64,000 bases of DNA from a virus (Duplodnaviria; Caudoviricetes), in IMG/VR virus record IMGVR_UViG_3300030330_004160, positions 96,001 to 160,000 of that record. The stretch is one strand, 5' to 3'. Below are positions 3,172-62,516 of the stretch, one piece after another (the first letter of the stretch is position 1; each line of letters begins with the position of its first letter). The notes under the pieces were generated by a model that was not told the DNA's origin, did not search any database, and was given only the letters and a program-made list of their open reading frames with translations. Position numbers and translations under genes: made by a program.

Positions 3172-3572
3172 GCCTTCTGGTTGCAAAGAAGTATTGGGGC
3201 AAGCTTAAGGTCTGGTGCTATTATCACTGGAAGTGGCTTGTTCTAATACTTGCCTTTGTGGTTATGTTCTTGTTGGGTCGTAAATCGAACAAAGGTTTGC
3301 TAAAACAAGCCGAAGGAGCACTGAAGTCTCAAAAATTAGAAAGCGCCGCAGTTGAAAGATCACATCGTTTAGAGATCAAGAAAAGAGAAAAGGCAAGAAA
3401 GAAGTACGAGTCCGCTATGGAAAGGATAGAAAAAGAACATTCCGAGGGCCAACAAAAACTTGACGAAGCCAAAAAGAAAGAATTGAAAAAGAATTTAAAA
3501 CTAGCCAAGAACAACCCAGATGAGATTGATAGAATCTTATCAGAACAGTTCGGCCTTAAGGAGACCAAATAA
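3168..3572 (+). CDS. Inner-membrane spanin-like protein (N-terminal TM plus coiled coil)
   Basis: TM WLVLILAFVVMFLLG followed by charged helical domain; GTGA overlap. Confidence 0.55.
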   Translation: MSLLVAKKYWGKLKVWCYYHWKWLVLILAFVVMFLLGRKSNKGLLKQAEGALKSQKLESAAVERSHRLEIKKREKARKKYESAMERIEKEHSEGQQKLDEAKKKELKKNLKLAKNNPDEIDRILSEQFGLKETK

Positions 3573-3805
3573 TGTTATTTTATTTATTTATGTTAACCGC
3601 CCACGCCGATGAGGGAGAAGAGGGCAAAATTACGTACAAGAAACAAACAGAGATCGACTTCGAAGCAATCGAACTTGAAGGAGAACTTGTTAAGCCTCAA
3701 GGTGCTCTGTTGCTTGAGAGAAAGAGGGCATCATTCAACCCTTTGATTACTTTGCGAAAAGACTTTAACAAGGAGATGAAAGAGTCCATCAAGGCGGTGG
3801 AATGA
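3572..3805 (+). CDS. cglF: CglF/GltF-like adventurous gliding motility protein (secreted)
   Basis: Signal peptide ending AHA; YKKQTEIDF..ELEGELVKPQG..ERKRASFNPLI.LRKDFNKE matches recalled CglF pattern (T.IDF..EGEL.KP.G..RK..F..LI..R..F..E). Confidence 0.75.
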   Translation: MLFYLFMLTAHADEGEEGKITYKKQTEIDFEAIELEGELVKPQGALLLERKRASFNPLITLRKDFNKEMKESIKAVE

Positions 3806-4200
3806 TATTGCTACTAATGTCTATGGCTCTAGCCGAAGAGCCCACATATGCCAACTTAAAGAAGGGAGACCCAGCGCCATTTGATGGTCGTTTGTTTAGC
3901 CCCGCAGCCGTCGCACAAGTTATAACGGAACATCGACTAAAAGATTTGGACTGCGATTTGGAGGTTGAATACCGCTTGGACAAAGCGGGAACAGAGGCGC
4001 AGTATACATATGATATACTTGAAGCCACTTGCAAGGCAGAGGCCCAGAAACTGCGTGATATTAATATTATCCGAGAGGAAGAACTCTCAATCTTAAGAGC
4101 CAGCAACAAACCACTGCGTCCTTATATATGGATGACTGGTGGCTTCATTATGGGCACAGCCACGTCTATTGCTATATTTAAAACGGTGAGTAATGAGTAA
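3802..4200 (+). CDS. Secreted/C-terminally anchored protein, possible spanin component
   Basis: Signal peptide, KGDPAPFDG motif, coiled coil, C-terminal TM. Confidence 0.45.
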   Translation: MILLLMSMALAEEPTYANLKKGDPAPFDGRLFSPAAVAQVITEHRLKDLDCDLEVEYRLDKAGTEAQYTYDILEATCKAEAQKLRDINIIREEELSILRASNKPLRPYIWMTGGFIMGTATSIAIFKTVSNE

Positions 4201-4576
4201 AAAAGATCAGAACTATGTTGCCAATGTAGAGAGAGCCATAGCAAAAAAATATGGCCAAGAAACGGTAAAGCACCCCAAAAGAGATTGGGATGATGAAAAA
4301 GAAAAAGAATATTTAAAACAAATAAAGGACCTCCACCACCTGGAACTTCGTGAAAGCGATGTCGATAAAGTTGAGGTAGATGGTGTTTTTGTTCCAAGAA
4401 AACTAATTAATAAGAACTCTGAGCGTTCTTGCCCGGTTTGCAATAAGTATTCTTTCAAATCTCAAGATGATGTTTATATGACAAAGTTTGAGTGCTGTTT
4501 TGGCTGCTATATACAATGGGTTGAAGGTCGTGAAGAAAGATGGAAAAAAGGATGGAGACCAAACAATGTCAACTGA
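4193..4576 (+). CDS. Hypothetical protein with zinc-finger (CPVC...CCFGC)
   Basis: Overlaps both neighbours; Cys motif. Confidence 0.7.
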   Translation: MSKKDQNYVANVERAIAKKYGQETVKHPKRDWDDEKEKEYLKQIKDLHHLELRESDVDKVEVDGVFVPRKLINKNSERSCPVCNKYSFKSQDDVYMTKFECCFGCYIQWVEGREERWKKGWRPNNVN

Positions 4577-5756
4577 AGGTTCAACAACATACAAAATTAT
4601 TCAAGGACTAGCACAGGCTGCTGCCAATGCTTATGATGGCGTGCATGATGAGAGATACACTCTGGATGGCCAAGTCAGAAACATGAAAATGAAAAGAGAA
4701 GAAGGCGAGCCCCTCATTGATAAAAGAGTCATTGACGGATTCAGCGTTAAGTTTTTTGGAGATAAGTTGTGTCTACACTATCACTCCGAGGTCATGCTAA
4801 AGCAAATCTACTCCGGCAACTTTGAAAACGACATCTCCGCAATGCTAAATGAAATCAAAAAGTTCCTTCAGAAAGAGTATAAAGCCATCACCGGAGAATC
4901 AGTAACCCTTACCAAATCAGGCGAAGTTAAAATTTATACTGCGTCGTCAAGTAGGGTTCGTTCATGGGTCCAAGCACACCAATTTTATAAAATATCTGGG
5001 ATCAAATCTGAACAATCCATCCAAGGGTCAGACGGCAGAACGGTTGATGATGCTATTAAATCATTCTTGGAATTAAACAATAAGAATAAGCGTCCCGAAA
5101 ATGATACAAGAAAGAAAGAAAAGATTGCTGAATCGCGAAATCAAAGAAGCCCAGAAGGTCAACTGGGTACATACGCCTTTTCCGGCATGACTGCTGCTCA
5201 ACGTGCTGCTCACCAAAATGCTACCATCGCTGACATGAAGGCCAAAGCAGCCCGAGGAGAGGCATTAAGCAATTTGGCAAAGAAATTCGAAAACAAACCA
5301 AGAGCCGCAGAAGTTGTAAAAGATCCATTGGAAAAGTTCTTAATTCTTAATCGTGCCTACGACGATTTTAGTGATATTCTTAATAATAAACTTGGACAGG
5401 CTTATGAACTTCCTTCTGGGTCTGATTTTAACAAGCACATAAAATATGATTTTGAAGGTCTTATGGCTAGGCTTGTAGCGGGGGCGCAAGGAAACAAAGA
5501 AGAGATAGGCAAGTTTTATAGAGACATAAGCCATGTTATTGGCGAATTAAAGCGTCTCCAACAAATGGTTAGTTCACCCAAACTTCGAAAAAGAGCAATA
5601 GAAGAACTTGGCCTCAAAAAGAAGCCCGGAATGGTCGGAAAAGCGATGAGTCGCTTAAAGAGTACGTTCGGCATGGAGGAAGATATTTCCCTCCCATCCA
5701 AGCAAAGCCGCCTCAAAGAAACCAAAACTAGAGTAAAAGTTAAAAAACAAAAGTAA
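4566..5756 (+). CDS. Hypothetical protein upstream of terminase
   Basis: Long ORF; ATG 4566 preceded by GGAG. Confidence 0.7.
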   Translation: MSTEGSTTYKIIQGLAQAAANAYDGVHDERYTLDGQVRNMKMKREEGEPLIDKRVIDGFSVKFFGDKLCLHYHSEVMLKQIYSGNFENDISAMLNEIKKFLQKEYKAITGESVTLTKSGEVKIYTASSSRVRSWVQAHQFYKISGIKSEQSIQGSDGRTVDDAIKSFLELNNKNKRPENDTRKKEKIAESRNQRSPEGQLGTYAFSGMTAAQRAAHQNATIADMKAKAARGEALSNLAKKFENKPRAAEVVKDPLEKFLILNRAYDDFSDILNNKLGQAYELPSGSDFNKHIKYDFEGLMARLVAGAQGNKEEIGKFYRDISHVIGELKRLQQMVSSPKLRKRAIEELGLKKKPGMVGKAMSRLKSTFGMEEDISLPSKQSRLKETKTRVKVKKQK

Positions 5757-5759
5757 TGA

Positions 5760-61698: not shown

Positions 61699-61718
61699 AT
61701 ATACATGTTGGAGAGAGA

Positions 61719-61907
61719 ATGACTAAAGAAGAGTTAGCGACATATCAAGCACAATGGCTGCGACTCAAGGGCTTGCTGCGAGAAGTCAAGATGATGCGTC
61801 TCGGAGGCAACGGTGATCCTTTGTATGCCCAAGACATGAAAAAAGTTGAGGAATCATTGACAGCCTGCTTAGAACAACTTAGAGTAAGAATAGAGGAAGC
61901 GCTATGA
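61719..61907 (+). CDS. Hypothetical protein
   Basis: Downstream of promoter, SD GGAG. Confidence 0.6.
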   Translation: MTKEELATYQAQWLRLKGLLREVKMMRLGGNGDPLYAQDMKKVEESLTACLEQLRVRIEEAL

Positions 61908-62044
61908 AAGAAGTAATGAAAATAGCCATAGTATTAAATTTATTCCTAGCGTTCATCAGTCTATTGATGGGTGACTGGAGCATGCTTGTTCTCAATCTAA
62001 TGTGTTGTTGGCTCTGTTATATCGGACACCAACAAAACCAGTAA
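61904..62044 (+). CDS. 46-aa hydrophobic peptide
   Basis: ATGA overlap, SD GAGG, two hydrophobic segments. Confidence 0.5.
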   Translation: MKEVMKIAIVLNLFLAFISLLMGDWSMLVLNLMCCWLCYIGHQQNQ

Positions 62045-62119
62045 GCACCCGTGGTGAAAGGGATATCACAGTGGCCTTCTAAGCCATTATTCTAGGTTCG
62101 AATCCTAGCGGGTGTACCA
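62045..62119 (+). tRNA. tRNA-Arg (anticodon TCT)
   Basis: Acceptor GCACCCG/CGGGTGT, anticodon arm GTGGC-CTTCTAA-GCCAT, T-arm CTAGG-TTCGAAT-CCTAG, encoded CCA. Confidence 0.95.
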
Positions 62120-62144
62120 TTATTTATTAACATATGGAGGAAAA

Positions 62145-62516
62145 ATGAATATTTTATTTGCTATTATAATGATGGGCTGTCGTCATGACCCAAAAGTAGA
62201 AGAAAGCGGAGACGCACAACCCCAGATTCCGGCTATGTCTGAGTGTGGTCAACTGGTGCTTGAAGAGGGAACTCCGACAGCCTTTGATGATTGTTTTGAG
62301 GGTCAAGGCGATACCGGTTGGTCCTGCGAGACCTGTGGGTATTACTCCGACGTTGCTTTGTCACAAGGGGCGTTTGATTGCATTACTTGTTACGAAGGGT
62401 ACGAGATCGACGTAGTATTCCCAGATTGCACTGGCTTTTGCGTACCGGAGGGTACGGCGGAAGATCCCATTGGCACTAATGAATGTGTCCCAGTATCTGA
62501 TTGTGTGAGAGACTAA
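62145..62516 (+). CDS. Cys-rich acidic lipoprotein
   Basis: SD GGAGG; lipobox-like MMGC; 10 further Cys including CETC and CITC. Confidence 0.75.
   Translation: MNILFAIIMMGCRHDPKVEESGDAQPQIPAMSECGQLVLEEGTPTAFDDCFEGQGDTGWSCETCGYYSDVALSQGAFDCITCYEGYEIDVVFPDCTGFCVPEGTAEDPIGTNECVPVSDCVRD

Follow-up and report, generated by a model that had tools for sequence, protein, structure and literature searches.

We report here that an uncultured marine T4-like myovirus encodes a secreted homologue of GltF (CglF), a small component of the gliding machine of myxobacteria, and that in related phages this gene recurs together with genes for predicted outer-membrane lipoproteins built on a von Willebrand factor A (vWA) domain with a metal-ion-dependent adhesion site (MIDAS). 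The stretch analysed, hereafter the window, comprises 64,000 nucleotides (bases 96001-160000) of the IMG/VR virus record IMGVR_UViG_3300030330_004160, which is 185,386 bp long and rated complete by CheckV; the window has a GC content of 41.5%, with about 200 of its 223 open reading frames (ORFs) on a single strand. An earlier note on this DNA had proposed a phage toolkit for manipulating the envelope and social motility of a gliding host, made of four genes starting at 3572, 58937, 61241 and 62145. All four are real, conserved and lie where they had been placed (Table 1). What is new here is the partnership of GltF with vWA lipoproteins, from which the hydroxylase and the Cys-rich lipoprotein of that list are excluded. 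The joint reading that we favour, and to which we give an even chance of being right, is that of a T4-like phage of aquatic Myxococcota with an old and dispersed repertoire of host-derived envelope proteins, which maintains parts of its host during infection.

CglF and GltF are one and the same protein (PMC4488436). In Myxococcus xanthus it is an 89-residue protein with a signal peptide, confined to the Myxococcales and Bdellovibrionales, which is required for gliding, is found at focal adhesions and is required to localise GltD (PMC3169522). It acts as the periplasmic linker of the Agl-Glt gliding machine, and AlphaFold-based modelling describes it as a bridge, joined to the TonB-like C-terminal domain of GltG by pairing of a β-strand and to GltC by the C-terminal helix, which is lodged in a crevice of that protein (PMC11761067). 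The phage protein matches the NCBIfam model gliding_CglF (NF033764) with an E-value of 1.2e-13 and 50.9 bits over model positions 24-86 of 88. It starts with a hydrophobic leader of 12 residues with an AxA-type ending, AHA (MLFYLFMLTAHA before DE), and is devoid of Cys; in other phage copies the leader is canonical and 15-20 residues long, and the cellular copies have long Ala-rich Sec leaders. Homologues of the phage protein number 541 in metagenomes and were found on 27 viral contigs.

The phage GltF is 60-68% identical to GltF of aquatic Myxococcota metagenome-assembled genomes (MAGs), where the gene is encoded between gltE and gltG. The clusters in which the cellular homologues P0090 and P0099 are encoded contain a TPR protein (GltD/E-like), GltF, an FHA protein of about 656 residues (GltG-like), a small outer-membrane barrel (GltH-like) and a protein with two Ig domains, in the order of the G1 cluster of M. 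xanthus (PMC3169522). When species-representative genomes were scanned, 80 gltF loci were recovered, nearly all of them titled as Myxococcota or Deltaproteobacteria MAGs. The GC content of the cellular loci is 55-70%, with the exceptions of L097 (45%) and L105 (48%), and that of the viral loci 35-44%, with the exception of L020 (48%); most viral loci have several further genes in common with the phage. Two side observations concern the cellular clusters. Several MAG records (L036, L045, L072, L100, L103, L112 and others) carry Myxococcota-type glt clusters at 58-70% GC under titles such as Klebsiella pneumoniae, Enterobacterales, Cognaticolwellia or Alphaproteobacteria, which are probably wrong and due to submitter errors. 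The two-Ig (HYDIN/ASH/Cep192) protein, of 373-398 residues, follows the GltH-like gene in the glt clusters of aquatic Myxococcota (e.g. L029:8464-9660) and has no entry in the G1 table of M. xanthus (PMC3169522); its Ig domains and those that make up the N-terminal half of the phage vWA lipoprotein are members of one family (BLASTP E 4e-9).

Those residues that do not vary among the phage and cellular copies of GltF fall within two conserved stretches of the mature protein, which may correspond to the modelled strand and helix. Docking of the mature phage protein (residues 13-77) on the C-terminal domain of a MAG GltG, run with alignments for both chains, gave an ipSAE of 0.39 against 0.00 for the best of three controls, with a contact agreement between runs of at least 84% and a partner predicted local distance difference test (pLDDT) score of 51. 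In the calibration 58 of 80 solved complexes attained the mark, as did 2 of 110 mismatches, and scores of 0.60 or below came from just 7 of the 80 complexes and from both passing mismatches; the result is thus a hint at most that the two proteins may pair. A quick tree of 59 columns places the phage copies nested among those of MAGs in at least 4-5 clusters, one of them sister to L097 and another grouped with the MAGs of L033, L039, L046 and L056, among which two bear the titles UBA796 and UBA2957. The resolution of this quick tree is too low for counting or dating transfers. The GC fraction of the phage GltF gene is 0.415 and that of the host-type genes 0.37-0.48, next to 0.46-0.62 in four cellular gltF genes; given this phage-like base composition, the host-type genes are old residents of the phage genome and not chimeras.

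The second member of the pair is the long vWA lipoprotein. Its gene has a GTG start behind GGGAGG, the leader ends in the lipobox LFAC, and the family shares the consensus start L-x-G-C-S-D-Y. With a lipobox Cys and no inner-membrane retention residue, the protein is predicted to reside in the outer membrane. Pfam and NCBIfam searches returned two Ig-like domains (HYDIN/VesB, DUF1573, choice-of-anchor D, E 2e-15) and vWA signals below threshold. An AlphaFold2 (AF2) model built from 28 sequences reached a pLDDT of 88.1, and Foldseek matched its first half to HYDIN/ASH/CEP192 Ig domains and its second half to the vWA proteins ITIH1 (E 5e-13) and 4fx5 and to integrin beta-I headpieces; the model and these matches together confirm the vWA fold. 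The MIDAS is complete: among 28 phage and MAG sequences the motif D267-x-S269-x-S271 is invariant, and D305 and S375-D376-E377 are invariant or nearly so. The family is large, with 236 matches at E <1e-10, about 40% identity and a constant length of about 525 residues, often on contigs of 60-220 kb. Full-length relatives (residues 32-522, 28-30% identity, E down to 2e-49) occur in five of five Myxococcota MAGs, with 7-16 matches in each, and the nearest entries of the ESM Atlas are viral clusters of about 530 residues (Uroviricota) and bacterial clusters whose commonest phylum is Myxococcota.

The phage encodes a shorter vWA lipoprotein as well, a paralogue of the C-terminal half of the long one, and both architectures are found in the MAGs, where the gene for the long form stands behind mdh and that for the short form (about 315 residues) is the first in a conserved operon of three lipoproteins. 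In two relatives of the phage the full-length match to the long form contains one in-frame TAA (G006:C1:12791-14368 and G021:C1:13665-15242), which may mean that the gene is broken, that the sequence is in error or that two genes are present.

We compared the gene content of the related phages at two scales. Among 17 GltF-bearing viral records, mostly fragments, 12 have a gene of the long vWA type. Ten related records, all of them with GltF by selection, were compared whole and for all genes: a vWA lipoprotein is present in eight, a trypsin-like and a TlpA-like lipoprotein in five each and a Ser/Thr kinase in two; the hydroxylase is confined to two of them, G006 and G021, and no record has the Cys-rich lipoprotein. 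The co-occurrence that the earlier note had suggested checking is thus found for GltF with the vWA lipoproteins and fails for the other two genes, and the pair is kept down to relatives whose terminase large subunit (TerL) is 48% identical. Four records (G007, G010, G013 and G018) have their vWA, trypsin-like and TlpA-like genes no more than a few kb apart, and in three of these four GltF is 5-6 kb away from them. The additional exported genes were obtained by a whole-genome leader screen followed by family scans. Between the short vWA and the TlpA-like genes of the phage lies a gene for a eukaryotic-type Ser/Thr kinase, a class that is abundant in Myxococcota, with homologues in G006 and G008. 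As to the word system used previously, what stands is a recurrent GltF/MIDAS core, accompanied by the trypsin-like and TlpA-like lipoproteins; the genes are dispersed and no shared promoter motif was found among them; the set is a recurrent accessory repertoire and not one co-regulated system.

All four proteins had been described as host-type. This holds for the GltF-like protein and the vWA lipoprotein, which have relatives in Myxococcota with complete glt clusters. The hydroxylase was rejected as a host-type gene, not having been found in the five MAGs, belonging to a generic viral family and having as its nearest Atlas cluster one of 2,392 members that is 82% viral; cultured phages gave a single match, at 28%. 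Its assignment to PF04116 is clear (E 1.6e-12, 48.5 bits against a gathering score of 31, model positions 2-132 of 132), and it has the His boxes HKYIFH, HLKEHH, HEYQH and HWEHH. A perfect sigma-70 consensus (61671-61698; TTGACA, 16-nt spacer, TATAAT, extended TG) stands after the hydroxylase stop and before a 62-residue ORF at 61719-61907. For the Cys-rich lipoprotein the listed ORF start at 62112 runs into the tRNA-Arg gene, which makes the ATG at 62145, behind GGAGG, the likely start. Its family consists of 17 proteins, in which the lipobox Cys and ten Cys are invariant and, in two homologues, the domain is duplicated. It matched no Pfam, NCBIfam or PHROG family and had no relatives in the viral-contig search, the five MAGs or the ten related records, and its AF2 model was unusable (pLDDT 52.7). 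A near relative, L183, retains the block formed by the vWA gene, a 214-residue gene, the hydroxylase, the 62-residue gene and the Cys-rich lipoprotein, so the vWA, hydroxylase and Cys-rich lipoprotein genes are linked among close kin only. The Cys-rich lipoprotein is an orphan of near relatives whose link to the GltF/vWA set is not demonstrable, and both it and the hydroxylase are separate accessory genes.

Table 1. Features of the phage discussed in the text. Positions are those of the window, except where given as genome positions, which fall outside it.
Feature	Position	Strand	Characteristics
Rz-like i-spanin candidate	3168-3572	+	N-terminal transmembrane helix, charged coiled coil; phrog_739, E 4.4e-5
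GltF/CglF-like secreted protein, 77 aa	3572-3805	+	leader, beta-strand core, C-terminal helix
Exported 132-aa protein	3802-4200	+	short signal-like leader, C-terminal transmembrane helix; no lipobox Cys
TerL	5760-7343		T4-type
Portal	7348-9261		T4-type
Long vWA/MIDAS lipoprotein (P0002), 533 aa	58937-60538	+	lipobox, two HYDIN/ASH-type Ig domains, vWA, C-terminal beta domain
Small membrane di-iron hydroxylase, 141 aa	61241-61666	+	Pfam FA_hydroxylase PF04116
tRNA-Arg(UCU)	62045-62119	+	ARAGORN; sole tRNA in the phage
Cys-rich lipoprotein, 123 aa	62145-62516	+	lipobox Cys, ten Cys
Short vWA/MIDAS lipoprotein, 306 aa	genome 16507-17427		paralogue of the C-terminal half of P0002, 26% identity, E 2e-15
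Eukaryotic-type Ser/Thr kinase	genome 17455-18783 (L119:3455-4783)		Pkinase, E 6e-8
TlpA/ResA-like AhpC-TSA lipoprotein	genome 18784-19284		
Trypsin-like lipoprotein	genome 175536-176288		

The hosts are most likely uncultured aquatic Myxococcota whose genomes are small and which possess a Glt gliding-type envelope machine. This assignment is favoured by the restricted range of gltF, the closest cellular relatives of GltF and of the vWA lipoprotein, the common leader style and the lone tRNA, whose codon is seldom used by GC-rich genomes. The short, myxobacterial-looking leaders pointed out in the earlier note are real, and those of the homologous MAG lipoproteins are equally short. The phylum of the MAGs is confirmed independently of the record titles by the MYXO-CTERM signal, above cut-off in five of five MAGs and in none of 14 control genomes; this signal is reported to be confined to the Myxococcales (PMC3325183). 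The single tRNA-Arg(UCU), along with the use of AGA for 47% of the Arg codons of the phage, fits an AT-rich phage in a GC-rich host. Of the myxobacterial host suggested before, an aquatic member of the Myxococcota thus probably remains, and a Myxococcus-like soil host was rejected, the closest cellular copies lying in aquatic MAGs of 3.5-4.6 Mb. The closest cultured TerL sequences, those of Flavobacterium phage immuto (45% identity) and a Microcystis phage (43%), are too distant to give any host indication, and a gliding host among the Bacteroidota (Flavobacterium), taken from the closest of them, was rejected given that GltF and the vWA family indicate Myxococcota. For the GltF and vWA pair we found neither a host type devoid of Agl-Glt nor a lack of co-occurrence with unrelated taxonomic origins. 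Two other genes of the window may be mentioned. A bS21 ribosomal protein (12113-12271, in ORF 11954-12328; Pfam PF01165, 40.2 bits, above cut-off) would be a possible host marker once compared with bS21 of Myxococcota and an out-group, and an amidohydrolase of the PRK06886/cytosine-deaminase-like group (63213-63998; NCBIfam E 1.1e-76) scores below cut-off, perhaps because the window end cuts its ORF.

Taken as a mechanism, the favoured reading would run as follows. The core of the repertoire would be the secreted GltF copy and one or two outer-membrane MIDAS/vWA lipoproteins, the long Ig-Ig-vWA form and the short vWA-only form, joined in many relatives by the trypsin-like protease lipoprotein and the TlpA/ResA-like thiol-disulfide oxidoreductase lipoprotein. 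During infection the phage GltF would be exported via Sec and, having kept the strand for the TonB-like C-terminal domain of GltG and the helix for GltC, could act as the linker that joins the motor arm in the inner membrane to the platform in the outer membrane. The lipoproteins would travel to the outer membrane and may there bind ligands through their metal-dependent vWA domains. With host parts replaced or maintained in this way, the infected cell would stay attached and its envelope machine would stay assembled after host gene expression stops, in the manner of other auxiliary phage genes. We prefer such maintenance over poisoning of the machine. The data themselves show homology, export signals, the vWA fold, conservation of the MIDAS, co-occurrence and a phage-like base composition, from which the host, the docking and the direction of the effect are inferred. 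A wider version, which we consider possible and at the same time doubtful, is that large marine phages (35-44% GC; complete records 185-187 kb, the longest 237 kb) have, as a group, planktonic or particle-attached Myxococcota as their hosts, and that a portable kit of GltF and MIDAS proteins, with the periplasmic protease and the oxidoreductase included, takes over adhesion and gliding.

Several observations weigh against the favoured reading. The score of the phage GltF lies below the curated equivalog cut-off of 90 bits (49.7 bits in a six-frame search). The long vWA lipoprotein matches the CglD model NF033765 at E 1.7e-9 and 36.1 bits (cut-off 400) and the Bdellovibrio MIDAS-adhesin model NF052240 at E 1e-9 and 38 bits (cut-off 700), in both cases over 50-60 residues, and its short paralogue matches NF052240 at E 5e-10 and 38.9 bits (cut-off 700). 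In the MAGs no glt genes lie within about 8 kb of the cellular vWA lipoprotein genes, and none of the 80 gltF loci contains a gene like the long vWA lipoprotein at E <1e-5, barring at most three loci with a second match; the phage and its relatives lack the operon partners of the cellular vWA lipoproteins. Since the cellular homologues stand away from glt genes and the matches to adhesin models are local and far below cut-off, the vWA lipoproteins can be tied to gliding only by analogy with CglB, CglD and Bd0875 (PMC9946355, PMC11003981). The phage, at 41% GC, is 15-25 points below the MAGs with the closest GltF (55-70%), and the cultured myxophages Mx4, Mx8 and Mx9 have 67-70% GC (PMC6070905, PMC8530038, PMC10281127); CRISPR-linked myxophages of 46-51% GC have been reported (preprint 10.64898/2026.09.14.751636). 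Phage and host are assigned to each other without a direct link, spacer and prophage matches not having been sought. The exported genes are dispersed over about 160 kb of the phage genome, the position of GltF varies between relatives, and no common regulatory or promoter motif was found for the genes: the motif GGACA-N5-TGTCC is absent from the window, TATAAATA is mostly on the non-coding strand, and sigma-70-like and terminator-like sites of the window are within about 2 standard deviations of the shuffled mean.

Furthermore, nothing in these data discriminates between maintenance and interference. In the latter case, somewhat unlikely in our judgement, the phage GltF would jam the Glt machine and the lipoproteins would mask or displace a surface receptor, so that the infected cell would be halted, superinfection blocked and the progeny spared adsorption to debris. 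Outer-membrane lipoproteins are a classic tool of phages for receptor masking, Llp of T5 and Cor of the phi80-type phages being receptor-blocking lipoproteins of this kind, and envelope machines are common phage receptors; in this phage, moreover, GltF lies in a late, lysis-proximal module. However, both conserved stretches of GltF are invariant, with none of the truncation or loss that might mark a poison subunit, the complete MIDAS of the lipoproteins implies ligand binding beyond mere occlusion, and no sequence likeness to known exclusion proteins was found in PHROGs or PADLOC-independent scans.

The dispersal of the genes, the presence of GltF in at least three neighbourhoods among the relatives and the lack of a common promoter motif are what would be expected if there were no joint function at all, that is, if independent accessory genes had been acquired at different times and now occur together through common ancestry and common hosts. 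Common ancestry indeed inflates the co-occurrence counts, and the hydroxylase and the Cys-rich lipoprotein are clearly of other origin. We nevertheless hold this explanation to be unlikely, since GltF and the vWA gene stay together where TerL identity has fallen to 48% and the lipoprotein genes are clustered in the four records named above.

The place of GltF in the phage raises a further explanation, in which it would belong to the lysis apparatus and partner the Rz-like i-spanin at the outer membrane without itself being a lipoprotein. Its start overlaps the stop of the Rz-like gene, an arrangement of translational coupling at the place expected of an o-spanin, and no lipoprotein o-spanin ORF is embedded in or adjoins the Rz-like gene. 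GltF is found directly 3' of the Rz-like gene in the phage and in L002, L004, L010 and L022, with the gene for the exported 132-residue protein coming next; in G006, G021 and L032, however, it belongs to a different module, distant from the Rz-like gene. G006 is a complete relative of 187 kb with a TerL 74% identical and 115 genes in common with the phage. In the relatives the Rz-like gene adjoins the terminase with or without GltF as a neighbour, and it stays paired with the gene for the 132-residue protein in G006, G008 and G010, although G006 has its GltF elsewhere; the 132-residue gene also occurs in G009 and G011. Since GltF has no Cys, it has no lipid anchor either. Thus GltF is a mobile accessory gene that is non-obligatory for lysis, and a role as spanin partner is quite improbable. 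As for the 132-residue protein, it had no family match in profile scans, and its topology is that of a unimolecular spanin minus the lipobox Cys. Finally, the earlier note had speculated that the phage proteins are handed to kin neighbours by TraAB outer-membrane exchange before lysis, which we consider hardly credible and for which we found no evidence: although CglF and other Cgl proteins of M. xanthus and outer-membrane lipoproteins are exchangeable cargo (PMC3325183, PMC4488436) and the phage proteins bear suitable export signals, TraA orthologues have been reported in Myxococcales only (PMC3325183), the TraA-type Cys repeat TIGR04201 (a repeat model, not a full TraA profile), which in TraA goes with a PA14 domain and MYXO-CTERM, was above cut-off in none of the five candidate-host MAGs, which are incomplete, and a benefit to the phage is not evident.

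Placed beside known systems, the favoured repertoire of envelope proteins has partial counterparts. The phage GltF resembles GltF/CglF of M. xanthus (MXAN_4868) in being small (77 against 89 residues), in its Sec signal and lack of a Pfam domain, and in the conserved β-strand core and C-terminal helix; it differs in its 12-residue leader, its sub-cut-off score, its phage-like composition and its location outside a glt operon, no other glt homologue having been found in the phage. The lipoproteins share with CglB and CglD (PMC9946355; 10.1101/2023.10.19.562135) and with Bd0875 (PMC11003981) the predicted outer-membrane anchoring and an integrin-like vWA domain with a complete MIDAS, whereas the long form has two extra N-terminal Ig domains and orthology to CglB is not shown. 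Like Llp of T5 and Cor of phi80 and N15, they are lipoproteins encoded by a phage that would go to the outer membrane of the infected host, but Llp and Cor are small (about 60-80 residues) and without vWA, and no likeness in sequence or fold to the phage lipoproteins was found. A parallel in idea is offered by the psbA-type auxiliary genes of cyanophages, which are likewise host-derived, long kept in a marine T4-like lineage, of phage composition and conserved sequence, and which replace a host component during infection; in contrast to these, the product here would be a structural part of an envelope machine for motility and adhesion and not a metabolic enzyme or a photosystem subunit.

Our literature search found no paper describing phage-borne glt or cgl genes, and the preprint cited above, in which few viruses were recovered for the marine Myxococcota classes UBA796 and UBA9160, makes no mention of them (10.64898/2026.09.14.751636). 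Hardly any viruses are known for the marine classes of Myxococcota, and as GltF is confined to Myxococcota and Bdellovibrionota, the phage copy provides a rare built-in host marker for a widespread group of phages of 185-237 kb. If the phage proteins truly enter the Glt machine and the cell surface, auxiliary phage genes would reach beyond metabolism into the mechanics by which cells adhere and move, and small natural variants of GltF and MIDAS adhesins would become available for probing the coupling of focal adhesions across the envelope. Should the phage group indeed carry a portable kit of this type, it would be the first case of a virus that provides structural parts of a bacterial motility machine.

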